A stretch of 64,000 nucleotides of DNA. It comes from Clostridiales bacterium. GTDB lineage: Bacteria > Bacillota > Proteinivoracia > UBA4975 > PWLI01. Shown in pieces: positions 3,432 through 54,126 of the stretch (its first letter is position 1; each line of letters starts with the position of its first letter). The position numbers and the translations under genes were made by a program. The DNA is taken from positions 3,618 to 67,617 of the forward strand of contig PWLI01000011.1 of the NCBI GenBank assembly GCA_003559415.1, read 5' to 3'. The notes below the pieces were generated by a model that made no database searches, had not been told where the DNA came from, and saw only the letters and a list, made by a program, of their open reading frames with translations.

Positions 3432-5608
<2,177 letters not shown>

Positions 5609-5610
5609 TC

Positions 5611-6693
5611 CTAAACAAGCTCTGTTATTTGTCCTTTTCTCACTGAAAATGTTTTTTGGGGGTTGGTCTCTGACAGGGGCTCTGTAGTTGTGATTATCGC
5701 CTGAATTCCCTTGGGCAGACTGTCCATCAGCAAACGGCGCCGGACCTGGTCCAGCTCAGAAAAAACATCATCCAACAGCAGCACCGGCAGATCTCCTGTT
5801 TCAGCCAAAAACAACTCCACCTCGGCCAGTTTAACAGCCAGCACCGCTGTCCGCTGTTGACCCTGGGAACCATAGCTTCGAAGATCTTCGCTGCCCAACA
5901 AAAAGGTTATGTCATCTCTGTGGGGGCCAAAGAGAGTGGTTCGTTGAATCCTTTCCTGCTTGGAGTGCTCCCTGACTTGTGCCGCCACTCCACACTCACC
6001 ACTTTCCAAACAAAAAGAAGGTGTGTAACACAATGCCAACTCTTCTGTGCCGTCGCTGAGGCGGCGGTGCCGTAAACGGGCCAGCAGACTCAGCTTTTTT
6101 ACAAACTCCCTTCTTTTGCATGAAATGTTCATGCCAAGCTTGATAAGTTTTTCCGTAAGAACAGCCAATAACGTTCCGTCCACCGTTGAAAACTTAAGCA
6201 ATGCGTTTCTCTGCTGCAACACCCTTTTGTAGCGTTCAACGTCATTACGGTACCCGGAATCCATCTGACAAATCTCCAAATCCATAAACCGCCTTCGCCT
6301 TGCCGGGCCGCCCTTGACCAAATCCATGTCTTCAGGAACAAAAAGCACAGACCTTATGTTTCCCACAACTTCGCCAAGGCGGCTAACCAGGGCGCCATTC
6401 AGCTTGTTTACCCTGCGGTTGTCTCTGTGCAATCCCATTTCTACCCAAACAGGCTCTTCCTTTGCCCTTGTTCCCTTGCCGGAAACATAGAGATATTCAC
6501 TTTCATGGTTTATCAGTTGTTCCTGCCTGGTAATGCGGGGCGAAAATCCGGTGGACAGAAAGTATACAGACTCCAAAAGATTTGTTTTCCCCTGTCCGTT
6601 TTGCCCCACCACAACGTTGACCCCGGGGGCGGGGAAAACCTCGCCTTTTTTAAAGTTTCTCCACCCGGCAAACTTTATGGCATCTATTTTCAT
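5611..6693 (-). CDS. recF: DNA replication and repair protein RecF
   Basis: 360 aa. Has the N-terminal Walker A VVVGQNGQGKTNLLE, an SMC-like signature and the C-terminal LLLDDVFSELD Walker B. Confidence 0.95.
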   Translation of the reverse strand: MKIDAIKFAGWRNFKKGEVFPAPGVNVVVGQNGQGKTNLLESVYFLSTGFSPRITRQEQLINHESEYLYVSGKGTRAKEEPVWVEMGLHRDNRRVNKLNGALVSRLGEVVGNIRSVLFVPEDMDLVKGGPARRRRFMDLEICQMDSGYRNDVERYKRVLQQRNALLKFSTVDGTLLAVLTEKLIKLGMNISCKRREFVKKLSLLARLRHRRLSDGTEELALCYTPSFCLESGECGVAAQVREHSKQERIQRTTLFGPHRDDITFLLGSEDLRSYGSQGQQRTAVLAVKLAEVELFLAETGDLPVLLLDDVFSELDQVRRRLLMDSLPKGIQAIITTTEPLSETNPQKTFSVRKGQITELV

Positions 6694-6696
6694 AGG

Positions 6697-6927
6697 TTAC
6701 CCTTCAACATTTATTTTTAGTTCGTCTTCGCCTACAACAACCCAGTCTCCGGGATAAAGCTTTTTTCCCCGCTCGGTTGTTGGGATGCCGTTAACCAACA
6801 CCGGTGTTTGCTGCAGCAACATTTTTGCCTCTCCGCCTGTTTGTACAATGTCAGCCATCTTCAGCAGTTGTCCCAGCTTTATAAATGGTGTCTCTATCTT
6901 TATGTTCACTGGTTGCTTACCTTTCAC
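6697..6927 (-). CDS. yaaA: S4-domain RNA-binding protein YaaA
   Basis: 76 aa. IKLGQLLKMADIVQTGGEAKMLLQQTPVLVNG...GKKLYPGDWV is an S4 fold. It lies at the conserved dnaN-yaaA-recF position. Confidence 0.8.
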   Translation of the reverse strand: MKGKQPVNIKIETPFIKLGQLLKMADIVQTGGEAKMLLQQTPVLVNGIPTTERGKKLYPGDWVVVGEDELKINVEG

Positions 6928-39993: not shown

Positions 39994-42459
39994 ATGGACA
40001 ACTTGCAACTTGGCGACCAAGTAAAAACAAGCATCCGACAGTTGATTGCCGGGGCCGACGGCAACGAGCTGTTTTTTGTCGCCCAAGTGGAAGAAAGGCA
40101 AATAACATCAGCAGAAGTTGTTGCCCGGGGAAACAGCGTCAGCGTCCCGGCTGTGACCGAAAAACTCCGCCCTGGCATGTTGGTGTTGCACAATCATCCC
40201 AGCGGTGACCTGACGCCATCAGGCGCGGACATTACCCTGGCCAGCAGACTTGCCGCCGATGGGATTGGTTTTGCCATTACAGATAATGCAGCCAGTCAGC
40301 TGTATGTGGTGGTAGAACCTGATGGCGGCCGGGCAGCCAAGGCCGTTTCGCTGGTTGAGCTTGAAGAGGTGTTGTCTGCCGGCGGAAGCATCAGCCACCG
40401 CATGACGGGCTATGAGACCCGGCCCCAGCAGCTGGCAATGGCTGAACGGGTCAGCCATGTGTTGCACAACGGAGGACAGGGTGTTTTTGAGGCGGCCACC
40501 GGCACAGGGAAAAGCCTGGCCTACCTGGTGCCGGCGATTATCTGGGCGCTGGAAAATGACAAAAGAGTGGCGGTTTCCACCAACACCATTAATTTGCAGG
40601 AACAGTTGCTGCACAAAGATATTCCCTTGCTGGCAAGCGCCCTTTCCCGGCCCTTTAAAGCTGTGCTGGTAAAGGGAAGGGGCAACTATCTGTGTCGCCG
40701 CAAGTTGCGGGAAGTATGCCGCTCTGGTGAGGATTTGTTGGACGACGGCGACCTGGAACCGCTGCAAATGTTAATGAGCTGGGAAAAGGCAACCAGCGAC
40801 GGCAGCCTGTCAGACCTGGATTTTGCCCCCCGCTCCGAGCTGTGGGAATTGCTTTGCTCTGAAGGGGACACTTGCCTGCGCAGTGAATGCCCGATTTTCA
40901 GGGACTGCTTTTTCCACCGTGCGCGCCGGGAGGCTCTCAATGCCCAGTTGCTGGTGACCAATCATCATCTGCTCTTTGCAGACATATCCATGAGGGTTGC
41001 CGGCGGAGAGGCGGGAGTGCTGCCCCGGTACCATGCCGCGATAATTGATGAAGCCCATAACATTGAGCGGGTGGCAACAACCTGGTTTGGCGCCAGGGTT
41101 ACCCGTTTGGGCCTGCTCCGCCTGTTGGGCCGCTTGTATGGGCAGCGGGGAGCGAAGGCCAAGGGCCTGCTGTTGTTGATTGAACGAAAAATTGCTGCCA
41201 GTCAGCAGCTTTCTGAGCAAAAATCCCAGGACATAGTTTCCCGAATTCATCATGAGCTGGTTCCCCTTATCATAAATGCGGCAGCCGGTGTAAATGATTA
41301 CTTCACCCGTATGCAGGTCTATGCCGCCGATGGCCAGGATAAGAAAATCCGTTTGGACGGCAAGGATGGAGCATGGAAAGGACGGCTGGAAGAGGGCCGG
41401 GAAATGATACATCGCCTGGACTCGCTGGCCCATGGGCTGGAGGGGTTTGTCCGGCGCCTGGAACAGGCTTCTCCCGGGGGATTTGAAAACCTCTTGACCT
41501 CTGTTGTTGAGCTGATTTCGGTGTCCGGGCGCCTGCAGGGGCTGACGGACAGCCTCAGAGAGATATTCTTTGGCAATGACCAGCACGCCGTCCGCTGGCT
41601 GGAAGCATATAGCACCCGCCAGGGGCCGGCAGTAAGCTTCCATCAGGCGCCGCTTTCAGTTGACACGTTGCTGGCAGACAACATCTGGCGACGGATACCG
41701 GCAACGGTGCTTACCTCTGCCACGCTGTCGGTGGCCGGCGATTTTGGCTATCTGCGGCGGCAATTGGGCCTGTCGGAAAACATGCCGGTGGAGGAGGGAA
41801 TTTTCCCCTCCCCCTTCGACTACTCATCCCAGGTTATGGTGGGAGTGGCCACAGACATCCCCGAGCCGGAGCAGGGAGCTTATGCGAAAAAACTCGGCCC
41901 CGCCCTCCTGGCCTCTGTCCAGGCCACCAGGGGCAGGGCGCTTATACTGTTTACTTCCTATGCCATGCTGAAAAATGCCCACGGTTATTTGCGCAACAGC
42001 CTGGATGGGAAGGGCATCAGCCTGCTTTGCCAGGGCGAAGCGCCCAGAACCCAGTTGCTGGACAGGTTTCGCAAAGACACCGGCTCTGTGTTGCTGGCAA
42101 CCTCTTCCTTTTGGGAAGGCGTTGATGTGGTGGGGGAAAGTCTCAGCAGCTTGATTATAACCAGGCTGCCCTTTTCTGTGCCCGACGACCCGGTGATGGA
42201 GGCCAAGCTGGAGCGGCTGAGAGACCAGGGCCACAACCCCTTTTACGACTACCAGTTGCCCCAGGCAGTGCTCAGGTTCAAGCAGGGGTTTGGGCGGCTG
42301 ATCCGCAGCCGCAGTGACAGGGGGGTTGTACTGGTGCTGGACAGGCGGATCAGCACCCGGCGTTACGGGAAAATGTTTTTTGGCTCCCTGCCGGAATGCA
42401 CGGTTTTGGAAGATGAACTTTTGTCGATTTTGGACCTGCAGGGCAAGTTCATCGGCTGA
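39994..42459 (+). CDS. RadC-like JAB/MPN domain fused to a DinG/Rad3-family Fe-S ATP-dependent DNA helicase
   Basis: Residues 1-130 carry the JAMM motif LVLHNHPSGDLTPSGADITLASRL (HxHx7Sx2D) with RadC-like flanks. Then Walker A ATGTGKSLAYL, a four-Cys Fe-S insert (C...CLRSECPIFRDC), DEAH (IIDEAHNI), and C-terminal helicase motifs (LLATSSFWEGVDV, GRLIRSRSDRGVVLVLD). Confidence 0.8.
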   Translation: MDNLQLGDQVKTSIRQLIAGADGNELFFVAQVEERQITSAEVVARGNSVSVPAVTEKLRPGMLVLHNHPSGDLTPSGADITLASRLAADGIGFAITDNAASQLYVVVEPDGGRAAKAVSLVELEEVLSAGGSISHRMTGYETRPQQLAMAERVSHVLHNGGQGVFEAATGTGKSLAYLVPAIIWALENDKRVAVSTNTINLQEQLLHKDIPLLASALSRPFKAVLVKGRGNYLCRRKLREVCRSGEDLLDDGDLEPLQMLMSWEKATSDGSLSDLDFAPRSELWELLCSEGDTCLRSECPIFRDCFFHRARREALNAQLLVTNHHLLFADISMRVAGGEAGVLPRYHAAIIDEAHNIERVATTWFGARVTRLGLLRLLGRLYGQRGAKAKGLLLLIERKIAASQQLSEQKSQDIVSRIHHELVPLIINAAAGVNDYFTRMQVYAADGQDKKIRLDGKDGAWKGRLEEGREMIHRLDSLAHGLEGFVRRLEQASPGGFENLLTSVVELISVSGRLQGLTDSLREIFFGNDQHAVRWLEAYSTRQGPAVSFHQAPLSVDTLLADNIWRRIPATVLTSATLSVAGDFGYLRRQLGLSENMPVEEGIFPSPFDYSSQVMVGVATDIPEPEQGAYAKKLGPALLASVQATRGRALILFTSYAMLKNAHGYLRNSLDGKGISLLCQGEAPRTQLLDRFRKDTGSVLLATSSFWEGVDVVGESLSSLIITRLPFSVPDDPVMEAKLERLRDQGHNPFYDYQLPQAVLRFKQGFGRLIRSRSDRGVVLVLDRRISTRRYGKMFFGSLPECTVLEDELLSILDLQGKFIG

Positions 42460-42611
42460 CCGGTTCTTTGTTTAGCCTCTGTGTGCTATACTCGATATGG
42501 CTCCGTTTTTGCCGGACAGTCGGCAAGCAATCACAGCACAGGGCTGTTTTTATCGCCCATGATGCCCGATTATGAGCGGCAAGGCAAAATATTTTGCAAG
42601 GGGTTGGGCCG

Positions 42612-43973
42612 ATGAACAGCGACATAACCCACAATCTTTTGGAAGTGATTATCAGCCAAAGTGATCTGGCCATCCATGTGGTGGACAGGGATGGGGTTAC
42701 AACAATCTACAACAATGCCGCGGAAGCCATGGATGGCCTGTCCCGGCAAGATGTTTTGCACCGCCATATTCTCCAGGTGTTTCCGTCGCTGAACAGGGAC
42801 ACCAGCACCTTGCTTCGGGTGCTGGCCAGCGGCCAGCCAATCTACAACCAGCAGCAAACATACACAAACCTGCATGGCAAGAGCATTGCCACCGTCAACA
42901 CCACCCTGCCAATCACGGGACAGGACGGCGAAAGGGTGGGGGCGGTGGAAATGGCCAGGGACGTTTCCACCATCAAGGCGCTGTCCCAACAGGTTATCAA
43001 CTTGAGCCAGCGCCTGCAAAAACATTCTTCTGAGGCAAACGACCCCAGCTTTTACAGTTTTGATCAAATAGTTGGCAGGGATGCCCAGTTGCTGGCGGTG
43101 GTTGACAAAGCCCGCAAGGCTGCCAGAACATCCTCCCCTGTGCTCATAAGCGGCGAAACGGGTACGGGAAAGGAAATGATTGCCCAGTCAATCCACGGGT
43201 TCAGCCCCCGGGCTTCTCACCCCTTTGTTGCCCAAAACTGTGCAGCATTGCCGGAATCATTGCTGGAAGGGTTGCTTTTTGGCAGCGTCCGGGGGTCTTT
43301 TACCGGGGCCATGGACCGGCCGGGCCTGCTGGAGCTGGCCCACCAGGGGACGCTGCTTCTCGATGAAATTGGTTCTTTGCCCCCGGCGTTGCAGGCCAAA
43401 CTGTTAAGGGTGTTGGAACACGAGGAGGTAAGGCGCCTGGGCGACACCCGGGTAAGGAAGATAAGCTTCCGTTTGGTGGCGGCTACGGCGGCCGAACCAA
43501 GGGAGTGTTTGCGTCCCGATTTGTACTACCGGCTCAATGTAGTCAGCTTACACATGCCCCCGTTGCGGCAGCGGATAAGAGACATACCAATGCTTTGTGC
43601 TCACTTTCTCTCTCGCCAAAACCGGGAAATGGGCAACTCTATAACCGGAATCAGCCATGGGGCCATGGACATACTGCAAAGCTATCATTGGCCCGGCAAT
43701 GTCAGGGAGCTGGCAAACCTTTTGGAGAGCATTGGCAACTATCGGGAAAGCGGCAACATTGTTGCCACCGACCTTCCTGAGCACCTGCGGGCGGGAAGGG
43801 AAGAGTTTTCTTTGCGCAATGAACTGCAGCAACTGGAGAGAAAACACATCCTGGCAGCGATGGAGGCTGCCGGGAATAACATCTCCCGGGCGGCCCAATT
43901 GCTGAAACTGCCCCGCCAGACGCTGCAGCGGAAGTTGAAGGCCCTTGGTTGGCACACTAATTGCACAGAATAA
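42612..43973 (+). CDS. Sigma-54-dependent transcriptional activator (PAS - AAA+ - Fis-type HTH)
   Basis: PAS (HVVDRDGVTTIYNNAAEAMDGL), AAA+ with Walker A GETGTGKE and a GSFTGA variant of the GAFTGA loop, Walker B LLLDEIG, and a C-terminal HTH AAQLLKLPRQTLQRKLK. The ATG at 42612 has a better RBS than the TTG at 42594. Confidence 0.85.
   Translation: MNSDITHNLLEVIISQSDLAIHVVDRDGVTTIYNNAAEAMDGLSRQDVLHRHILQVFPSLNRDTSTLLRVLASGQPIYNQQQTYTNLHGKSIATVNTTLPITGQDGERVGAVEMARDVSTIKALSQQVINLSQRLQKHSSEANDPSFYSFDQIVGRDAQLLAVVDKARKAARTSSPVLISGETGTGKEMIAQSIHGFSPRASHPFVAQNCAALPESLLEGLLFGSVRGSFTGAMDRPGLLELAHQGTLLLDEIGSLPPALQAKLLRVLEHEEVRRLGDTRVRKISFRLVAATAAEPRECLRPDLYYRLNVVSLHMPPLRQRIRDIPMLCAHFLSRQNREMGNSITGISHGAMDILQSYHWPGNVRELANLLESIGNYRESGNIVATDLPEHLRAGREEFSLRNELQQLERKHILAAMEAAGNNISRAAQLLKLPRQTLQRKLKALGWHTNCTE
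43950..43965 (+). promoter_or_regulatory. Sigma-54 (-24/-12) promoter for the lysine-fermentation operon, embedded in the last codons of the activator gene
   Basis: TGGCAC-actaa-TTGCA is a perfect TGGCAC-N5-TTGCA. It ends 6 nt before the activator stop codon and lies about 35 nt upstream of the kdd start. Confidence 0.65.
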
Positions 43974-44000
43974 GGACAAAGGGAGTAGGGAGTGAGCAAC

Positions 44001-45047
44001 ATGAAAACCAAAGGTTGTGCATACGGCACACATCGCAGCATCGAGCCCCGGGGGTCGCTTCCCCAACCAGCATGGAAAATTGACAACACGCTGGACATTT
44101 GGAGCAATGAACTGTTGATAGATGTTGACACCCTCAACATTGATGCAGCCAGTTTCCGTCAGATTTCTGCTTCAGCCCAGGGCGATGAAGGTGAAATCGC
44201 CAATATAATAATGAAAACCGTTTCTGAACGGGGCAAGCAACACAACCCGGTGACGGGTTCCGGGGGCATGCTTGTAGGCCGGGTGGCAAAAGTCGGGAAA
44301 GACTGGCCCAACAATGTTGAACCAGACAGCCGCATGGCCACCCTTGTTTCCCTGTCTTTGACCCCCCTGGTCATTGAAGAAGTGCTTGCAGTGCGCCCCG
44401 ATACCTGTCAGGTAGACGTGCGGGGCAAGGCTGTTTTGTTTGAAAGCGGCATATATGCCCTGTTGCCCCAGGACATGCCGGAAAAAATGGCGCTGGCTGT
44501 GTTGGATGTTGCCGGTGCCCCCGCCCAAACTGCCCGCCTGGCCCGTTCCGGTCAGACGGTGGTTGTTATTGGAGCCGGCGGAAAGTCTGGGTTGCTCTGT
44601 CTCTTCCAGGCCCGGCAAAAGGCAGGGGATCAGGGCCGGGTGCTGGCCCTGGAGTTTTCCCAGGCAGGCGTGGAGCGAATTGAGGAAACGGGTTATGCCG
44701 ATGAGATCATTGTCGCTGATGCCACCAACCCCACAGATGTTTTGGACAAGGTAAGTGCCGTCACAGATGGAGCACTGGCAGACCTGACCATAAACTGTGT
44801 GGACATCCCGGGAACGGAGATGTCGTCAATTCTTTCCACCAAGAATGGAGGGACCGTCTATTTTTTCAGCATGGCCACCAGCTTTACTGCCGCGGCGCTG
44901 GGTGCAGAAGGAGTAGGCAAGGACGTGACCATGATAATTGGCAATGGCTACACTCGGGGACATGCTGATATGGCCCTGGAATGCATGCGCCAGCAACCCC
45001 GGTTGAAAGAGATTTTTTCCCGGGCTTACGTTGAAAAGGAGGACTAG
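44001..45047 (+). CDS. kdd: L-erythro-3,5-diaminohexanoate dehydrogenase
   Basis: MKTKGCAYGTHRSIEPRGSLPQPAWKIDN... is the conserved Kdd N-terminus, followed by a Rossmann VVVIGAGGKSG. About 350 aa. RBS TAGGGAG. The ORF track uses a GTG at 43992. Confidence 0.8.
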   Translation: MKTKGCAYGTHRSIEPRGSLPQPAWKIDNTLDIWSNELLIDVDTLNIDAASFRQISASAQGDEGEIANIIMKTVSERGKQHNPVTGSGGMLVGRVAKVGKDWPNNVEPDSRMATLVSLSLTPLVIEEVLAVRPDTCQVDVRGKAVLFESGIYALLPQDMPEKMALAVLDVAGAPAQTARLARSGQTVVVIGAGGKSGLLCLFQARQKAGDQGRVLALEFSQAGVERIEETGYADEIIVADATNPTDVLDKVSAVTDGALADLTINCVDIPGTEMSSILSTKNGGTVYFFSMATSFTAAALGAEGVGKDVTMIIGNGYTRGHADMALECMRQQPRLKEIFSRAYVEKED

Positions 45048-45049
45048 CC

Positions 45050-46288
45050 TTGGCTGATTACAAAGACATACCCCTGTTTGAATCGGTGACAAAGGAACAG
45101 TGGCAAGACTGGCATTGGCAACTGCAAAACCGCATAAGCGATGTTGCCACGCTCAAAAAGGTAATCAACCTTACCAGCCAGGAAGAAGAGGGGATTGAGC
45201 GCTGTTTGCAGTCGTTGAGAATGGCCGTTACCCCTTACTATGCCAGCCTGATGGATAGGGACGACCCCAACTGCCCCATAAGGCGGCAGGCTGTTCCTGT
45301 CAGCAATGAGTTGAACATGTCTGCTACCGATATGGACGATCCCTTGGCAGAGGATACCGACTCGCCGGTGCCCGGCCTGACCCACCGATACCCCGACAGG
45401 GTGCTGTTGCTGGTAACTGACCAGTGTTCCATGTATTGCCGCCACTGCACACGCAGAAGGATGGCGGGAGCCACCGACAAAGCCCTGCCGGGAGAGCAGG
45501 TGGATGGAGCGATAGAATATATCCGCCGCACCCCGGCCATAAGGGATGTGCTGATTTCCGGTGGCGACGGGTTGCTTATTTCAGATGCTCACCTGGAAAA
45601 AATAATCCAGAAGCTGCGCAGCATCCCCCATGTTGATGTTATTCGCATTGGCACCCGGGTGCCGGTGGTGATGCCCCAGCGCATTACCCGGGAACTGGTA
45701 ACGATGTTGCAACGCTACCACCCTGTTTGGCTGAACACCCACTTTAACCATCCCCGGGAGGTTACCCCTGAAGCCTGTAAGGCGTTGGAAATGCTGGCCA
45801 ATGCGGGCATACCCCTGGGCAACCAGTCGGTGCTGTTGCGGGGTGTAAATGACTGCGTCGGCGTGATGAAGGCGCTGGTGCACAAGCTGGTGCAAAACCG
45901 GGTGCGCCCATACTACATTTACCAGTGTGACCTCTCCCGGGGGATAGAGCATTTTCGCACACCAGTGGCCAAGGGGATTGAAATTATTGAAGGCCTGCGG
46001 GGCCACACTTCTGGCTATGCAGTGCCCACCTATGTCGTAGATGCCCCCGGCGGAGGGGGCAAAATACCGGTGATGCCCCAATACCTGATCTCTCATTCTC
46101 CCCAGAGGGTAGTGTTGCGTAACTTTGAGGGCGTCATAGCGGCTTACACCCAGCCCTCAGAATACAGCGACCCGGATTGCAGTCAGTGTGAATATTGTCA
46201 GCAATCAATTGGTGTCAGCAGTGTTTTGCAAGGCAGTCGGCCCAGCCTTGAACCGGAGGGTTTGGACCGGCAGAGACGCCGCAAATGA
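45050..46288 (+). CDS. kamA: L-lysine 2,3-aminomutase (radical SAM)
   Basis: CSMYCRHCTRRR is the CxxxCxxC cluster. PLP-binding and the C-terminal Zn-Cys motif CSQCEYC match the KamA architecture. Confidence 0.9.
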   Translation: MADYKDIPLFESVTKEQWQDWHWQLQNRISDVATLKKVINLTSQEEEGIERCLQSLRMAVTPYYASLMDRDDPNCPIRRQAVPVSNELNMSATDMDDPLAEDTDSPVPGLTHRYPDRVLLLVTDQCSMYCRHCTRRRMAGATDKALPGEQVDGAIEYIRRTPAIRDVLISGGDGLLISDAHLEKIIQKLRSIPHVDVIRIGTRVPVVMPQRITRELVTMLQRYHPVWLNTHFNHPREVTPEACKALEMLANAGIPLGNQSVLLRGVNDCVGVMKALVHKLVQNRVRPYYIYQCDLSRGIEHFRTPVAKGIEIIEGLRGHTSGYAVPTYVVDAPGGGGKIPVMPQYLISHSPQRVVLRNFEGVIAAYTQPSEYSDPDCSQCEYCQQSIGVSSVLQGSRPSLEPEGLDRQRRRK

Positions 46289-47307
46289 ACAAGTTGCTCA
46301 AGCAGGCTGTAGAGGGAGGCAGTCTGGCAGTAGTGGGCATGGCCAAAAATGCCGGCAAAACTGTGACAATAAACTATCTGTTGGCACAGGCTGCCATCCA
46401 TGGAATCCGTACGGGACTGACCTCCACCGGCCTGGATGGTGAAACAACGGACTCCCTTTACCTGCTGCCCAAACCGGAAATAACGCTGTCTGCCGGATCC
46501 CTGCTGGCCACGGCCCGGGGCAGCCTTTCCCAGGGGTCGGCTCGCCTGGAATTGTTGCGAGGCACAAGGCTGGTAAACCCTTTGGGTGAAATAGTGATTG
46601 CCCGGGTTAGACGGGAAGGAACGGTGGAAGTAAGCGGCCCGGAAACATGCAGCGACCTGGCAAAAGTTATATCCCTGATGTCCGGAGAAGTCGACTTGGT
46701 GTTGGTGGATGGCGCCCTGGACAGGGTGGCGGCATCTGCTCCTTCAGTCACTGGTGGCGCAGTGCTGGCTACCGGTGCAGTGGTGGCTGGCAACGTGGAA
46801 GGCGTGGTGCGGGAAACTGTTTACCAGGCAAGGTTGCTGATGCTTCCCCCTTGCCGCAGTTTAAACGTGGACGAAAAAAATCTCATTGAGCAGGGCGGCA
46901 TCGCTGTTTCCAGCGCTGACGGCCTTGAAATCCTTCCATTGGAGACAGCAGTTGACGGCCCCCTGGAGATACTGGACTACCTGACGCCCCAGTGTAAACT
47001 GTTGTTGGGCGGCGCATTTACAGATGAACTGGCCCAGTTGCTGTTGGGGGCCTCCCGGCGCCTGGGAGAACTGTCAGTGGTGGTGAGGGATGGAACCAGG
47101 GTTTTTGTCGGCTCCCGTCTCTGGCAGCAGTTGGAACGGTCCAGTGTGGATGTGTTGGTTATGGAGGCGATAAATCTGATGGCGGTGGTTGTCAACCCTG
47201 TTGATGTTCGCGGCAGACAGCTTCCGGGGGACAAGCTGATTTCGATTCTTTCTCAACTTCTGCCGGGGGTGTCCGTGTTCAACCCTCTGGCTACAGGGGG
47301 TGACTGA
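46285..47307 (+). CDS. P-loop NTPase of unknown function encoded between kamA and kamDE
   Basis: Walker A VVGMAKNAGKTVT, a hydrophobic-strand-then-Asp LVLVDGALD, and Gly/Ala-rich core strands. No confidently recognisable family. Confidence 0.55.
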   Translation: MNKLLKQAVEGGSLAVVGMAKNAGKTVTINYLLAQAAIHGIRTGLTSTGLDGETTDSLYLLPKPEITLSAGSLLATARGSLSQGSARLELLRGTRLVNPLGEIVIARVRREGTVEVSGPETCSDLAKVISLMSGEVDLVLVDGALDRVAASAPSVTGGAVLATGAVVAGNVEGVVRETVYQARLLMLPPCRSLNVDEKNLIEQGGIAVSSADGLEILPLETAVDGPLEILDYLTPQCKLLLGGAFTDELAQLLLGASRRLGELSVVVRDGTRVFVGSRLWQQLERSSVDVLVMEAINLMAVVVNPVDVRGRQLPGDKLISILSQLLPGVSVFNPLATGGD

Positions 47308-48955
47308 AATAGAAAGGTTTATTGGCAAACCATGCCAACAGCAAATTGGACTTGAATGGGTGCTGGAGCACTTGACCCCCTTAAGTTGCTACGGCCGCCT
47401 GCGGCAGGAGAGAATGCCGGTTTATTTGCCTGGGTGTGAGCACCAACTGACCAGGGAGTGGGAGCGGATTGGCAGCCTGCTGGACGTCTGGCAATCTTAT
47501 CCCGAAAAGGTCCAGGCTGTTGAGGCGGAAATACATGGCCTCAGGGACATACGCGGTATAGTTCGCAAGGCCTGTGCTCATCTGACCCTGGAAGAACATG
47601 AGCTCTTTGACCTTAAGCAATGGTTGCAGCAGGTTGACCGCCTTTCTCAGACCCTTGTTACTTTGCCTTCTTTTTTGCCCCGACGTTTTTCGCTGTACTG
47701 CTGCCCCCGTTTGTTGGCATCCTTGAGCATGGAGGGTGACAGCGGATTCTATCTGGCAGACTGCTATGACCCCAAACTTGCCAGCCTGCGGCAATTGCAG
47801 CGGCAAAAGTTTTCTGTGCTGTCGGAAATAAAAGAAAAGCGGCAGGCTTGCATTACCCGGGAAACGGGCCTGGAGTTCAATTACCAGGGCTGTCTCCGGG
47901 TGGGCAAACATCAAACAGAATTACTGGACAAGTTGCATAATCGCAGCGACCTTCTGACAGTTGCAGAAACATATACTGAAGTGGAATTTACCCTGCGTAA
48001 AACTGCAGAAATGTTGGAGCTGTCCCGCCAGATAGCGGATCTTGAACAGGAAATCCAACAGCAGGAATATATAATCCGTCAGGTGTTGACAGAGCAAGTT
48101 GCCCGGCACAGCCGTTGGCTGCTGGCGTCGTGCAATCGTATCGGTGCCATTGATTTGCTCTTTGCCAAGGGGCGCCTGGCCCGGGAACTGGGCGGTTGCG
48201 TGCCCACCCTTGTTTCTGAAAACAAGTTGCAGATTTCAGCACTGGTTCACCCCCTTGTTGAAAACCAGCTTGCCAGCCAGGGATTGGTGTTCCAGCCATT
48301 GGACATTAATGTTGTTGGCAAAAGAGTTACCCTGATTACCGGGGCCAACATGGGCGGCAAGTCGGTGGCCCTCAAATCAATTGGGTTGGCGGTGGCCATG
48401 GCCCAAAGGGGCTTGTTGGTCCCTGCCCGCCGGATGGAGTTTTCGTTGCGCAGCTTTGTGTATTACTCTCAACAGGAAGAAAACCCGCGGCAGGGCCTCA
48501 GCACCTTCGGCGCAGAAATACACAGCCTCGCCCAGATGTTGCCCCGCCACCACCAGCCCGGCTTGTACCTGCTGGATGAGCCCGCCAGGGGCACCAACCC
48601 CCATGAGGGAGCAGGATTGGTGGCAGGGATAATTAACTGGCTGGTCTCGGGAAACAGCCTGGCAATTATCGCCACCCACCTGTCCGGCCTGACTGAGGGT
48701 GCAGCTGTGGATCACCTGCAGGTTGCCGGGTTGAGCAATGTTGAACCGGATCAGTTAAACCAGGCCCTGGCCGGGGGGAGAAAGTCTTTGCAACAGCTGA
48801 TGGACTACACCCTGGTCCCCTCTGGCGGGGATGTTCCCCGGGATGCTCTCAAGGTGGCTGCTTTTTTGGGGCTGGACCGGGAGATAATAAACTATGCACA
48901 TCGTAAATTGGGATTACCAGCTCAGGAGGTGGTTGACGATGAAATTGAATCTTGA
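47300..48955 (+). CDS. MutS-domain-V-like ATPase (MutS paralog without a mismatch-binding domain) in the kam cluster
   Basis: The C-terminal half has the MutS ABC-ATPase motifs ITGANMGGKSVALKSIG, ...STFGAEIHSLAQML..., LYLLDEPARGTNPHEG, and ATHL. The N-terminal half is helical and not MutS I-IV-like. Confidence 0.7.
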   Translation: MTEIERFIGKPCQQQIGLEWVLEHLTPLSCYGRLRQERMPVYLPGCEHQLTREWERIGSLLDVWQSYPEKVQAVEAEIHGLRDIRGIVRKACAHLTLEEHELFDLKQWLQQVDRLSQTLVTLPSFLPRRFSLYCCPRLLASLSMEGDSGFYLADCYDPKLASLRQLQRQKFSVLSEIKEKRQACITRETGLEFNYQGCLRVGKHQTELLDKLHNRSDLLTVAETYTEVEFTLRKTAEMLELSRQIADLEQEIQQQEYIIRQVLTEQVARHSRWLLASCNRIGAIDLLFAKGRLARELGGCVPTLVSENKLQISALVHPLVENQLASQGLVFQPLDINVVGKRVTLITGANMGGKSVALKSIGLAVAMAQRGLLVPARRMEFSLRSFVYYSQQEENPRQGLSTFGAEIHSLAQMLPRHHQPGLYLLDEPARGTNPHEGAGLVAGIINWLVSGNSLAIIATHLSGLTEGAAVDHLQVAGLSNVEPDQLNQALAGGRKSLQQLMDYTLVPSGGDVPRDALKVAAFLGLDREIINYAHRKLGLPAQEVVDDEIES

Positions 48956-50513
48956 TCAGGCAGTGATCAACCGCTGCCGCCAGGCCGCCGGTCACATCGC
49001 GGGCGATGTTGACCAATTTATCCGGCAAAGAACGACGGTATCTTTGGAACGTGCGGTGTTGAGGCTTATGGGCATAAACGATGCCATGGATGACGTTCCG
49101 GTGGCCAACCTTTTTGTTGAGACCATCCAGGCCGGGCAGGGCCTGGGCAGGGGGGCGGCCTATTGGTTGGCCAATGGCTGTTACCAGCTAAAACTCACTG
49201 CTGACGAAGTGGCCCAAAGAGTTGTATCGGGACAACTGGATTTGTTTCAATTGCCCCAGGCTGACCGGGCCACCCTCAATCCAACGCTGGAAAAGCTGAT
49301 GCAGCCCACAATTGAAAAAATTAAAGATCAACACCGGTTCAGAAAAGACAAACTGTCAAATCTTGGCATGGGCCCTGAGCCCTTGCTGTACGTGATTGTC
49401 GCCACCGGCGATATCTACCAGGATGTGGACCAGGCAGTGGCGGCAGTGGCCCAGGGGGCCGACATCGTGGCTGTTATCCGGACAACGGGGCAGAGCCTGT
49501 TGGACTATGTGCCCCATGGCTCCACGCGGGAAGGTTTTGGCGGTACATACGCTACCCAGGAAAACTTTCGCATCATGAGGGAAGCGCTGGATGAGGCAGG
49601 GGACAAAGCCGGCCGCTATGTGATGCTGGTCAATTACAGCTCCGGCTTGTGCATGCCGGAAATAGCTGTCCTGGGCGCCTTGGAGCGGCTGGATATGATG
49701 TTGAACGATGCCCTGTACGGAATTCTTTTCCGGGACATAAATATGCAGCGCACCTTGATTGACCAACATTTCTCCCGGCAGATAATCGGATTTGCCGGAG
49801 CGATAATCAACACCGGTGAAGACAACTACCTGACAACTGCCGATGCTGTGGAAGAAGCCCATACCGTGACGGCTTCCCAGTTCATAAATGAACAACTGGC
49901 GCTGTTGGCAGGCCTGGAAGACAGGCAAATCGGTTTGGGCCACGCCTTTGAGATAGACCCGTCCATGACTGACGGCTTGTTGTTGGAAATTGCCCAGGCA
50001 CAAATGGCCCGTCAGCTTTTCCCCCGGGCACCGTTGAAATACATGCCGCCTACAAAGCACATGACTGGTGATATTTTCCAGGGACATTTGCAAAACGGCC
50101 TGTTCAACCTGACATCGGTGCTCACCGGACAGGGAGTGCACCTGTTGGGCATGGTGACCGAGGCAATCCACACACCCTATGTTCAGGACCGCTTGCTGGC
50201 ATTGCAAAATGCCCGTTATGTCATGAACAACGCCCGCAACCTGGGAGAGGAATTGTCCATACGGGATGACGGCAAAATTTCCGCCCGGGCCCGAGACGTG
50301 CTGGAGAAGGCCGCCCAGATGCTGGAAACAGTTGCTGAAATAGGTTTGTTTGCAGCCCTGGAGAGGGGCATGTTTGCAGACATTGAGCGTTCCCGTGACG
50401 GGGGCAAGGGTTTGGATGGTGTGGTGATGAAGGATGTTGATTACTGCAATCCTTTCCAGGAGCTATTGACACAACAGGCTGGAAGTTCAGGAGGTGGCAA
50501 TGATGAGAAGTAA
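48939..50513 (+). CDS. kamD: Lysine 5,6-aminomutase alpha subunit (PLP/TIM-barrel subunit)
   Basis: MKLNLDQAVINRCRQAAGHIAGDV... About 520 aa. RBS CAGGAGGTGG. The ORF-track start at 48894 lies inside the previous gene. Confidence 0.85.
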   Translation: MKLNLDQAVINRCRQAAGHIAGDVDQFIRQRTTVSLERAVLRLMGINDAMDDVPVANLFVETIQAGQGLGRGAAYWLANGCYQLKLTADEVAQRVVSGQLDLFQLPQADRATLNPTLEKLMQPTIEKIKDQHRFRKDKLSNLGMGPEPLLYVIVATGDIYQDVDQAVAAVAQGADIVAVIRTTGQSLLDYVPHGSTREGFGGTYATQENFRIMREALDEAGDKAGRYVMLVNYSSGLCMPEIAVLGALERLDMMLNDALYGILFRDINMQRTLIDQHFSRQIIGFAGAIINTGEDNYLTTADAVEEAHTVTASQFINEQLALLAGLEDRQIGLGHAFEIDPSMTDGLLLEIAQAQMARQLFPRAPLKYMPPTKHMTGDIFQGHLQNGLFNLTSVLTGQGVHLLGMVTEAIHTPYVQDRLLALQNARYVMNNARNLGEELSIRDDGKISARARDVLEKAAQMLETVAEIGLFAALERGMFADIERSRDGGKGLDGVVMKDVDYCNPFQELLTQQAGSSGGGNDEK

Positions 50514-51243
50514 TTTTGTCAAGGCATACGGCGACGCCCTCAATGATGGAGCTGTCCAGCTGTCTTTTACCCTGCCGTTGTCACCGGGCGGGATGGCCAA
50601 AGAAGCGGCCCGGCACCTGGCAGAGAAAATGGGCTTGGACCAACCGGAAGTGGTACACATGGTCGAGGCCGGCACCGGATTCAGCTTCTTCATCGTTTAC
50701 GGCTTCTGTCGCCACCAGGTAGACACCAGTCAACTTCAGGCGACAGAGGTTGAGATCCAGGAAATGAGCTTCAATGAAATAAACCAGTATATACAGGAAA
50801 GAATAGGTCGCAGGCTAAATGTGGTGGCAGCATGCACCGGCACGGATGCTCACACCGTGGGCATTGATGCGATTATGAACATGAAGGGCTACAAGGGCGA
50901 GTACGGCCTGGAGCGCTACTCCTGGATCAACGCCTGGAACATGGGCAGCCAGGTGCCCAATACCCGGCTGGTTGCTGAAGCAAAAAAAACACAGGCCGAT
51001 GCCCTGTTGGTTTCCCAGGTGGTAACCCAACGGGATGTGCACATATCCAACCTGTCCCAGCTCACCGAGTTGTTGGAGGCGGAAGGTATGCGTCAGAATG
51101 TGTTGCTGATTGTTGGCGGGCCGCGGATCAGCCACCAGCTGGCTCTGGAATTGGGATATGATGCAGGCTTTGGGCCGGGGACAACCCCTCGTCAGGTGGC
51201 CAGCTATATAGCCCGGGAGATATATCGCCGACAACAGGGATGA
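50500..51243 (+). CDS. kamE: Lysine 5,6-aminomutase beta subunit (B12-binding)
   Basis: Cobalamin DxHxxG motif in GTDAHTVGIDAIM within a Rossmann B12-binding domain. The PLP-Lys region lies N-terminal. Confidence 0.85.
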   Translation: MMRSNFVKAYGDALNDGAVQLSFTLPLSPGGMAKEAARHLAEKMGLDQPEVVHMVEAGTGFSFFIVYGFCRHQVDTSQLQATEVEIQEMSFNEINQYIQERIGRRLNVVAACTGTDAHTVGIDAIMNMKGYKGEYGLERYSWINAWNMGSQVPNTRLVAEAKKTQADALLVSQVVTQRDVHISNLSQLTELLEAEGMRQNVLLIVGGPRISHQLALELGYDAGFGPGTTPRQVASYIAREIYRRQQG

Positions 51244-51306: not shown

Positions 51307-52917
<1,611 letters not shown>

Positions 52918-52918
52918 G

Positions 52919-53305
52919 ATGGAAGAGAAAGTGGTGTTGAGGCTGCGCATCAGCGCTGCTGACGTGCATTATGGAAGCGGGCTGGTGGCTGGAGCAAAAA
53001 TCGCCAGCTTGTTTGGCGATGCTGCAACAGCCTTGCTGATAAAACACGATGGCGATGAGGGACTTTTTGTCGCCTACCAGTCCCTGGAGTTCAAGGCGCC
53101 TGTCTATGCCGGGGACTTTTTGGAAGTCCAGGCATCGATAGAGAAAACCGGCAACAGTTCCCGAACCATTTCCTTTGAAGCCTGGAAAATTATAGCGGCC
53201 AATCCACAAAAGGGCCCTTCAGCGGCAGACTGGCTTGATGAGCGCCAGCTTGTGGCAACAGCCCGGGGCACATGTGTGGTACCCAAGGAGAGGCAAAGGA
53301 GGTAA
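52919..53305 (+). CDS. kal: 3-aminobutyryl-CoA ammonia-lyase (hot-dog fold)
   Basis: 128 aa. Size, hot-dog-like sequence and adjacency to kce match Kal of the lysine fermentation pathway. Confidence 0.7.
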   Translation: MEEKVVLRLRISAADVHYGSGLVAGAKIASLFGDAATALLIKHDGDEGLFVAYQSLEFKAPVYAGDFLEVQASIEKTGNSSRTISFEAWKIIAANPQKGPSAADWLDERQLVATARGTCVVPKERQRR

Positions 53306-53307
53306 GC

Positions 53308-54126
53308 ATGGAAAAGTTAATAATAACGGCAGCCCTTACCGGAGCTGAACTCAGCCGCCAGGAAAATCCCAACTTGCCCATATCGCCGGAGGAAATCGCC
53401 GGGGAAGCAAAGCGGTGCTGGGATGCGGGAGCCAGTATTATTCACATTCATGCCCGCCAACCTGATGGAACCCCCACCCAGGACAAAGAGATATACCGGG
53501 AGATTATTCAGGCCATCCAGCAAAGAAGCGACGCCATTGTTCAGGTCTCCACCGGCGGTGCTGTTGGCATGAGCCCGGAAGAGAGGGTGCAACCGGTCAC
53601 CCTTGCCCCTGAGATGGCCACCCTGACCACCGGAAGCGTTAACTTCGGCCAGGGGGTTTTTCATAACCCCCCGGAGATGATCAGGCATTTTGCCCGGAAG
53701 ATGATAGATTGCGGGGTAAAGCCGGAAATAGAGGTTTTCGACAGCGGCATGATTGCCAACGCCCTGTCATTAGTCAAGGAAGGCTTGTTGTCTCATCCCC
53801 TGCACTTTGATTTTGTGTTGGGTGTGCCGGGCGGCATGCCGGGAACACCGGAAAACCTGATGTTTTTGCGCCACCTGCTGCCCCCCGATGCCACCTGGAC
53901 GATGGCGGGCATAGGCAGGGCAGAGCTGCCCCTGGCAGTGATGGCCCTGGTCCTTGGCGGCCATGTGCGTGTGGGGTTTGAAGACAACATCTATTACAGC
54001 AAAGGAGTGCTGGCCCAGAGCAATGCTCAACTGGTGGAGAGAGTTGTCCGTATTGCCGGTGAACTGAATCGTCCTGTTGCCACGCCCTCTGAGGCGCGGG
54101 AAATATTAAGCATGGGGAGGTCTTGA
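53308..54126 (+). CDS. kce: 3-keto-5-aminohexanoate cleavage enzyme (DUF849/BKACE)
   Basis: MEKLIITAALTGAELSRQENPNLPISPEEIAGEA...IIHIHAR is a TIM-barrel BKACE signature. RBS AGGAGG. Confidence 0.8.
   Translation: MEKLIITAALTGAELSRQENPNLPISPEEIAGEAKRCWDAGASIIHIHARQPDGTPTQDKEIYREIIQAIQQRSDAIVQVSTGGAVGMSPEERVQPVTLAPEMATLTTGSVNFGQGVFHNPPEMIRHFARKMIDCGVKPEIEVFDSGMIANALSLVKEGLLSHPLHFDFVLGVPGGMPGTPENLMFLRHLLPPDATWTMAGIGRAELPLAVMALVLGGHVRVGFEDNIYYSKGVLAQSNAQLVERVVRIAGELNRPVATPSEAREILSMGRS

Follow-up and report, generated by a model that had tools for sequence, protein, structure and literature searches.

KamB and KamC homologs in a lysine 5,6-aminomutase operon of a Clostridiales bacterium: family assignment, conservation across distant lineages, and a probable role in cofactor servicing

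We analyzed a window of 64,000 nt of contig PWLI01000011.1 from a Clostridiales bacterium (all window positions are counted within these 64 kb, and all features described in it lie on the + strand), focusing on two genes located between kamA and kamDE in a lysine fermentation operon. The first (46285..47307, ATG start) encodes a 340-aa protein and the second (47300..48955, GTG start) a 551-aa protein. Judged from their sequences, these proteins almost certainly belong to the KamB and KamC families, respectively, and they probably service the cofactor state of KamDE, the cobalamin-dependent lysine 5,6-aminomutase (5,6-LAM). We infer that KamB and KamC represent the E2 component of 5,6-LAM or its functional equivalent. 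Both are nucleoside triphosphatases (NTPases) with intact catalytic motifs, encoded in overlapping frames with the kamDE operon across very distant lineages. At the annotation level the assignment of these genes is already known, and the window provides another member of the families rather than a discovery. What is added here is that KamC corresponds, by profile alignment and structure prediction, to a whole MutS2 core, that KamB has a P-loop of the form G-x5-GKT and no close solved relative, and that systems with KamB only exist.

Family assignment made use of the curated equivalog models of NCBIfam release 20 (June 2026). KamB scored 299.3 bits against a cut-off of 210 with NF052386 ("lysine 5,6-aminomutase reactivase subunit KamB"), its residues 14-333 covering profile positions 1-325 of 326, and KamC scored 438.9 bits against a cut-off of 300 with NF052383 ("lysine 5,6-aminomutase reactivase ATPase KamC"), its residues 16-535 covering positions 1-506 of 508; both matches are full-length. 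Homologs in RefSeq and UniRef carry the names KamB and KamC, for example, in Paramaledivibacter, Fusibacter, Fusobacterium necrophorum, and Clostridium estertheticum, and older records of homologs often read "hypothetical," "MutS2," or "methionine ABC transporter substrate-binding protein." Given matches above the cut-offs of both models and these homolog names, the reactivase hypothesis is identical with the current curated annotation. Compared with the named members, the proteins from the window match over their full length and their genes occupy the same position between kamA and kamD, and nothing substantive differs. Identity amounts to 30 to 40% with named clostridial and fusobacterial members and to about 50 to 80% with unnamed homologs from metagenome-assembled genomes (MAGs). 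An initial annotation of the window, made without database searches, had proposed the gene pair as a candidate reactivase or chaperone of 5,6-LAM, in agreement with NF052386 and NF052383, but its description of both proteins as being of unrecognized function is superseded by these models.

The significance of this assignment lies in the instability of the enzyme. In vitro, 5,6-LAM loses its activity by self-inactivation in a matter of minutes; this hampers mechanistic studies as well as applications of the enzyme in biocatalysis of beta- and diamino acids. The factor that sustains the enzyme, E2, was already known in the 1970s. Two reviews, from 2014 and 2022, describe E2 biochemically as an ATP-dependent reactivating component of native 5,6-LAM of about 80 kDa, which possesses adenosylcobalamin (AdoCbl)-synthetase activity, transfers label from [8-14C]ATP to E1, and makes ATP an allosteric activator of E1. 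According to these reviews, recombinant KamDE is active, inactivates itself in a substrate-dependent suicide reaction that yields cob(III)alamin, and lacks regulation by ATP. Neither review names a gene for E2, and to this extent the earlier statement that no gene is firmly assigned to this activity is borne out; it is outdated by the NCBIfam release of June 2026. Our full-text search of the open literature returned no paper pairing the names kamB or kamC with an aminomutase. The sole paper found there that links "MutS" with 5,6-LAM is that of Perret et al. 2011, in which the legend of a cluster figure marks "HP" and "mutS" genes in lysine clusters without comment. If KamB and KamC constitute E2, their coexpression with KamDE should yield a long-lived enzyme, and the architecture of this reactivase, composed of a MutS2-like clamp and a SIMIBI NTPase, would be unrelated to the DdrAB/EutA and MeaB systems.

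Conservation of the gene pair across kamD clusters had been set as a test of the proposal in the initial annotation, and it is extensive; absence of the pair from most other kamDE clusters, named there as a refuting outcome, was not observed. In a scan outward from kamD, in which one genome per GTDB species was searched with an alignment of KamD, 594 relatives were confirmed, and the 80 best of them were retained together with flanks of 10 kb. Their six-frame open reading frames (ORFs) were searched with hidden Markov models (HMMs) built from KamB and KamC homologs, and loci were considered informative if they extended for 3.5 kb or more upstream of kamD, which applied to 67. Both KamB and KamC were present in 51 of the 67, KamB without KamC in 7, and KamC alone in a single locus, at a contig edge; thus, 59/67 contained at least one of the two. 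These loci derive from at least six phyla, including Bacillota, Bacteroidales, Fusobacteria, Thermotogae/Petrotogales, Spirochaetes, a Riflebacteria MAG, and Asgard ("Promethearchae*") MAGs. The commonest gene order was kdd-kamA-kamB-kamC-kamD-kamE, which is also that of the window, and an Intestinimonas/Oscillospiraceae-type order, kamB-kamC-kal-kce-kdd-kamA-kamD-kamE, was found as well. The association was also evident from the other side. A metagenome scan outward from KamB confirmed 569 relatives, of which 80 were kept, and kamD was present in 45 of the 49 KamB-centered loci with at least 3.5 kb downstream. KamC was encoded in 31 of these 45, and in the remaining 14 kamB was followed directly by kamD. 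When 5 kb of sequence was required on either side, 29 KamB-centered loci remained; kamD was present in 28 of them and kamA in 24. Adjacency counts over 160 loci gave 110 cases of kamB followed by kamC and 86 of kamC followed by kamD.

Systems with KamB only place kamB right before kamD or after kamE (L149, L150); they account for 7/67 kamD loci and 14/49 KamB loci. All of the examples tested, such as L071 and L041, exceed the KamB cut-off. Overall, kamB adjoins kamDE in the absence of KamC in about a fifth to a quarter of the clusters. The existence of such systems marks KamB as the more universal of the two partners; KamC, although frequent, can be dispensed with or is provided by another part of the genome. 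In a KamB-only subgroup of 12 loci (L024, L033, L065, L102, L104, L112, L119, L126, L127, L132, L133, and L137) the P-loop reads GLAKNVSKT, with Ser in place of the Gly preceding the Lys, and every KamC-partnered KamB examined keeps GKT. Bacterial-type lysine fermentation genes were also observed on Asgard MAG contigs ("Promethearchae*"; L005, L006, L024, L033, and L065). Three of these (L024, L033, and L065) carry kce-kdd-kamA-kamB-kamDE without KamC, and the other two are short contigs with kamB-kamC-kamDE only. In L024, a gene encoding a TPR and RING-like zinc-finger protein (4948-6717) lies between kamA and kamB, and L033 and L065 show gaps of 1.2 to 1.9 kb at this position.

Two further distributional observations concern single clades. 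On rumen or gut Bacteroidales-like contigs, orphan kamB genes were detected with no lysine genes within 8 kb (L136, L146, L152, and L160), the one in L152 (7995-9002) being placed after an Xaa-Pro aminopeptidase gene, and other Bacteroidales contigs carry isolated kamDE (L022, L029, L058, L068, and L069). Since both situations occur, the kam genes in this clade seem to be scattered rather than lost. In Thermoactinomycetaceae, Laceyella and Thermoactinomyces (L001 and L003; P0292, P0311, and P0313) possess the order regulator-kdd-kamA-kamB-kamC-kamD-kamE. Members of this family are generally known as aerobes. A lysine cluster in these bacteria is unexpected, as the pathway is known from anaerobic fermenters.

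KamB (35.4 kDa) is predicted to consist of an N-terminal P-loop alpha/beta domain, into which a beta-rich segment (residues ~50-118) is inserted, and a C-terminal alpha/beta domain (~200-335), in a confident structure model with a predicted local distance difference test (pLDDT) score of 91.6. The P-loop, GMAKNAGKT (residues 18-26; 46336..46362), had been noted as a Walker A motif in the initial annotation and is in place. It is one residue longer than a canonical Walker A motif, and GxxKNxGKT is present in 139/140 KamB ORFs; the P-loop of BioD has the same spacing. Invariant in the family alignment are G18, K21, N22, G24, K25, and T26 of this motif, D142, G143, A144, and R147 of a Walker-B-like strand, LVDGALDR (46702..46725), and, in addition, G49, D51, G52, E53, D56, K63, P64, T163, G164, A165, D269, T271, N304, and P305. 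An NKxD motif is lacking, and therefore guanine specificity of KamB is not indicated. The family comprises 2,393 representatives at 50% identity; the top 150 of these are all of ~312 to 386 aa with a single architecture, and neither fusions nor other architectures were found among them.

Relatives of KamB outside its own family are remote. A Pfam scan gave no family match, the best score being 12.6 bits with MobB against a threshold of 26.6, restricted to the P-loop region. In a profile search of the PDB, the alignment was limited to 47 residues surrounding the MobB P-loop (E = 0.01), and Foldseek searches of the PDB with the KamB model returned nothing at E <= 1e-3. About 160 residues can be aligned with BioD-type SIMIBI ATPases, DUF1611, and MobB at 13 to 19% identity, and all Pfam scores of KamB with these groups are far below cut-off. 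On these grounds we rejected an assignment to MobB (PF03205), for which the score and the 47-residue PDB match are insufficient, and to DUF1611, for which there is no Pfam hit over the whole two-domain protein. G3E GTPases contain an ExxG Walker B motif and an NKxD guanine motif. Membership in this group (MeaB/ArgK, UreG, and HypB) was likewise rejected, with no family HMM hit for KamB and neither motif among its invariant residues. KamB further differs from MeaB/MMAA and other G3E metallochaperones in its G-x5-GKT motif, its additional beta insertion, and its C-terminal domain. As far as the model and alignments indicate, KamB is a SIMIBI-class NTPase outside all characterized families of this class and without a close solved relative. 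The kinship to MeaB, MobB, or DUF1611 considered in the initial annotation thus applies to the fold class, but KamB is a member of none of these families.

KamC (61.8 kDa) had been described as a MutS ATPase without mismatch recognition domains and as consisting of domain V only; the former is correct, but the latter is not. Pfam MutS_V matches residues 345-533, and MutS_I and MutS_II are absent. KamC profile positions 6-538 align with residues 3-513 of Bacillus subtilis MutS2 (7qv3, E = 5e-60). The AlphaFold model of KamC, confident from residue 1 (pLDDT 91.7), superposes in Foldseek on the complete core of Thermotoga maritima MutS2 (9kce) with a template modeling (TM) score of 0.72 for the query and 0.80 for the target, and it also superposes on domains III to V of Taq and Escherichia coli MutS. 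In this model, two long lever helices (158-189 and 236-269) flank a small beta clamp (~198-232) and are followed by the ATPase and a C-terminal helix pair. The Walker A motif TGANMGGKS (48338..48364; T347, G348, and N350-K354 invariant), the MutS signature GLSTFGAE (48494-48517), and the Walker B motif LLDEPARGT (48569..48595; D426 and E427 invariant) are recognizable, and Walker A, the STF signature, the DE of Walker B, and a conserved His are invariant or nearly so in the family. The alignment to E. coli MutS begins only at about residue 335 of the latter, and KamC is not a MutS1 mismatch repair protein, as it lacks the mismatch-binding domain I and the connector domain II. KamC therefore shares with MutS2 (7qv3 and 9kce) the lever/core, clamp, ABC ATPase, Walker motifs, STF signature, and His, but differs from it in the lack of a coiled-coil/KOW/Smr C terminus and in being encoded inside the operon of a B12 enzyme. 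KamC ends where the MutS2 core ends, and Pfam detected neither Smr nor KOW in it. Altogether, the predicted structure portrays KamC as a MutS2-type core of lever, clamp, and ATPase without domains I and II and without the KOW/Smr tail. A seemingly direct connection to KamD, the Rosetta-stone fusion P0228 (MutS_V plus Lys-AminoMut_A), was dismissed as an artifact of a contig with 0.9x coverage (L161) in which every gene is fragmented.

A role of KamB and KamC in servicing the radical S-adenosylmethionine (SAM) lysine 2,3-aminomutase KamA, for example, in reductive activation or with respect to its Fe-S cluster, has to be weighed against a role in servicing KamDE. It would be in line with the 97 of 160 loci in which kamA directly precedes kamB, and with the 4-nt overlap of these genes in the window. 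However, among the 29 well-flanked KamB loci, 4 contain kamD without kamA and none contains kamA without kamD, from which, together with the higher frequency of kamD in these loci, we conclude that KamB tracks kamDE and not kamA. Moreover, KamB-only systems place kamB against kamD (23 loci) or after kamE (2 loci), Intestinimonas-type clusters insert kal-kce-kdd between kamBC and kamA, and kamA is missing from the vicinity of kamB(C)-kamDE in loci such as L026, L041, L091, and L105. A service to KamA alone thus appears very unlikely. Still less credible is the notion that KamC is a genuine nucleic acid- or ribosome-directed MutS2-type factor for suppression of recombination or for ribosome rescue, linked to the operon by gene position only and unrelated to KamB. 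The full MutS2 core fold and the ATPase motifs retained by KamC would suit such a factor, but KamC scores 180 bits against the cut-off of 400 of the MutS2 equivalog TIGR01069 (and 111 against 642 of the MutS1 equivalog), lacks the KOW/Smr C terminus that defines MutS2 function, and forms a family of its own with a fixed operon context across at least six phyla.

Two other explanations stand beside the preferred reading, in which KamB and KamC jointly service the cofactor of KamDE. KamB might itself be the enzyme proper, of a new kind that handles cobalamin with the use of ATP, and act either as the part of E2 termed "AdoCbl synthetase" or as a gatekeeper resembling MeaB; KamC would then be a dispensable aid that opens KamDE. 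This division of labor is suggested by the existence of KamB-only systems and by the BioD-like character of the best structural matches of KamB, and we regard it as conceivable though rather doubtful. Alternatively, the two proteins might act as allosteric ATP regulators of 5,6-LAM and not as repair factors, considering that E2 confers ATP activation on E1 and that recombinant KamDE is devoid of ATP regulation. Against this, KamB and KamC both retain the catalytic residues of Walker B and of the signature that NTPases capable of hydrolysis typically possess; in addition, the old biochemistry did not separate regulation from reactivation, and both readings may hold together. A purely regulatory role is, in our estimation, improbable.

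Several observations weigh against KamB and KamC being the servicing factors of KamDE. Neither kamB nor kamC was found within 10 kb in 8 of the 67 informative kamD loci, and kamA is directly followed by kamD in 12 adjacency cases among the 160 loci. In four loci of the latter kind (L053, L056, L073, and L078), no kamB or kamC occurs in the flanking sequence at hand; either these genomes encode the two accessory proteins at another site or the organisms manage without them. The mass of E2, ~80 kDa, is not cleanly matched by KamB (35.4 kDa), KamC (61.8 kDa), a KamB dimer (71 to 77 kDa), or KamB plus KamC (97 kDa), the KamB dimer fitting only roughly. E2 has been called a sulfhydryl protein, and the KamB and KamC alignments contain no invariant Cys. 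The two reviews also mention that another protein, OraS, was reported to restore ATP regulation to KamDE. Finally, no experiment on KamB or KamC was found in the open literature.

It is nevertheless possible to sketch how such a system might operate. KamDE inactivates itself during turnover and ends up with cob(III)alamin bound. A KamC dimer might then act as an ATP-driven MutS-type clamp, gripping KamDE instead of DNA or ribosomes and opening its mobile B12-binding domain, thereby permitting release or re-adenosylation of the damaged cofactor. KamB would bind to KamDE and either control or itself carry out the step in which damaged cobalamin is removed or re-adenosylated; as with other SIMIBI proteins, its active form is probably a dimer that depends on nucleotide. 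Our confidence in this specific picture of a clamp opening the enzyme is much lower than that in the servicing role as such. A tentative extension is that KamC may be the first MutS-family clamp ATPase with a protein-cofactor complex as its substrate and KamB a new and structurally uncharacterized kind of B12 chaperone or adenosyl transfer NTPase, forming a universal core able to work without KamC, as it would in Asgard-type and other KamB-only clusters; we consider this somewhat less than an even prospect. None of the papers found in the open literature describes such a clamp-and-chaperone mechanism. The proposed activity resembles that of DdrAB/GdrAB and EutA, which mediate ATP-dependent rescue of suicide-inactivated AdoCbl enzymes and are encoded beside the enzyme, but no sequence or fold relationship of KamB or KamC to these proteins emerged from any search. 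DdrAB, GdrAB, and EutA have actin/Hsp70-type folds.

In the window, Pfam and NCBIfam matches identify a codirectional run of ORFs from a sigma-54 activator gene through kce. The regulator, PrdR-like and composed of PAS, sigma-54 activator, and HTH_8 domains (42594..43973), is followed by kdd, encoding L-erythro-3,5-diaminohexanoate dehydrogenase (43992..45047; NF052381, 247 bits against a cut-off of 200), and kamA (45050..46288; TIGR03820, 627 bits against 525). Downstream of kamB and kamC lie kamD (48939..50513; NF052384, 830 bits) and kamE (50494..51243; NF052385, 379 bits), then pyrG, encoding CTP synthase (51307..52917; Pfam/NCBIfam), kal, encoding 3-aminobutyryl-CoA ammonia lyase (52919..53305; NF052388, 161 bits against 160), and kce (53272..54126; NF052387, 443 bits).

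The two ORFs between kamA and kamDE and their overlaps of a few nucleotides with the flanking genes, as initially reported, were confirmed. The kamA stop and the kamB start share ATGA at 46285-46288 (overlap of 4 nt), kamB, with its stop TGA at 47305-47307, extends 8 nt into kamC, which starts at GTG 47300, and the kamC stop at 48953-48955 lies inside kamD, with an overlap of 17 nt if kamD begins at ATG 48939. This codon, which is preceded by a perfect AGGAGG at 48924-48929, is most likely the kamD start; an alternative ATG at 48894 was disfavored relative to it. The NCBI gene call for kamC on the same contig (P0121) comprises 531 aa and starts 20 codons after GTG 47300 (window 47300-47360). 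A segment upstream of this start, F-x-D/E...IGL, is kept among KamC homologs from about residue 5. Because this N-terminal segment is conserved and the structure prediction is confident from the first residue on, the 551-aa version is preferable to the 531-aa call.

A sigma-54 -24/-12 promoter-like site, TGGCACACTAATTGCA (43950..43965), matches TGGCAC-N5-TTGCW with zero mismatches and is the sole such match within the 64 kb. It falls within the 3'-terminal part of the gene for the PAS/sigma-54 activator, and the kdd start follows 27 nt later; a homologous activator is encoded upstream of kdd in many related loci. This site and the recurrent activator suggest that the lysine operon is probably sigma-54 dependent and transcribed from the putative promoter at 43950. 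In scans of the region between 42 and 57 kb, no terminator or sigma-70 promoter that would divide the operon scored higher than expected from shuffled sequence.

The position of pyrG between kamE and kal/kce is not part of the usual cluster layout. One related contig from a metagenome, L161, has the gene in the same place, and in L084 the distance between kamE and kal suggests a similar arrangement. Upstream of the operon, an 821-aa protein (39994-42459) combines an N-terminal RadC-like JAB domain (HNHPSG) with a DinG-type helicase (DEAD plus Helicase_C_2).

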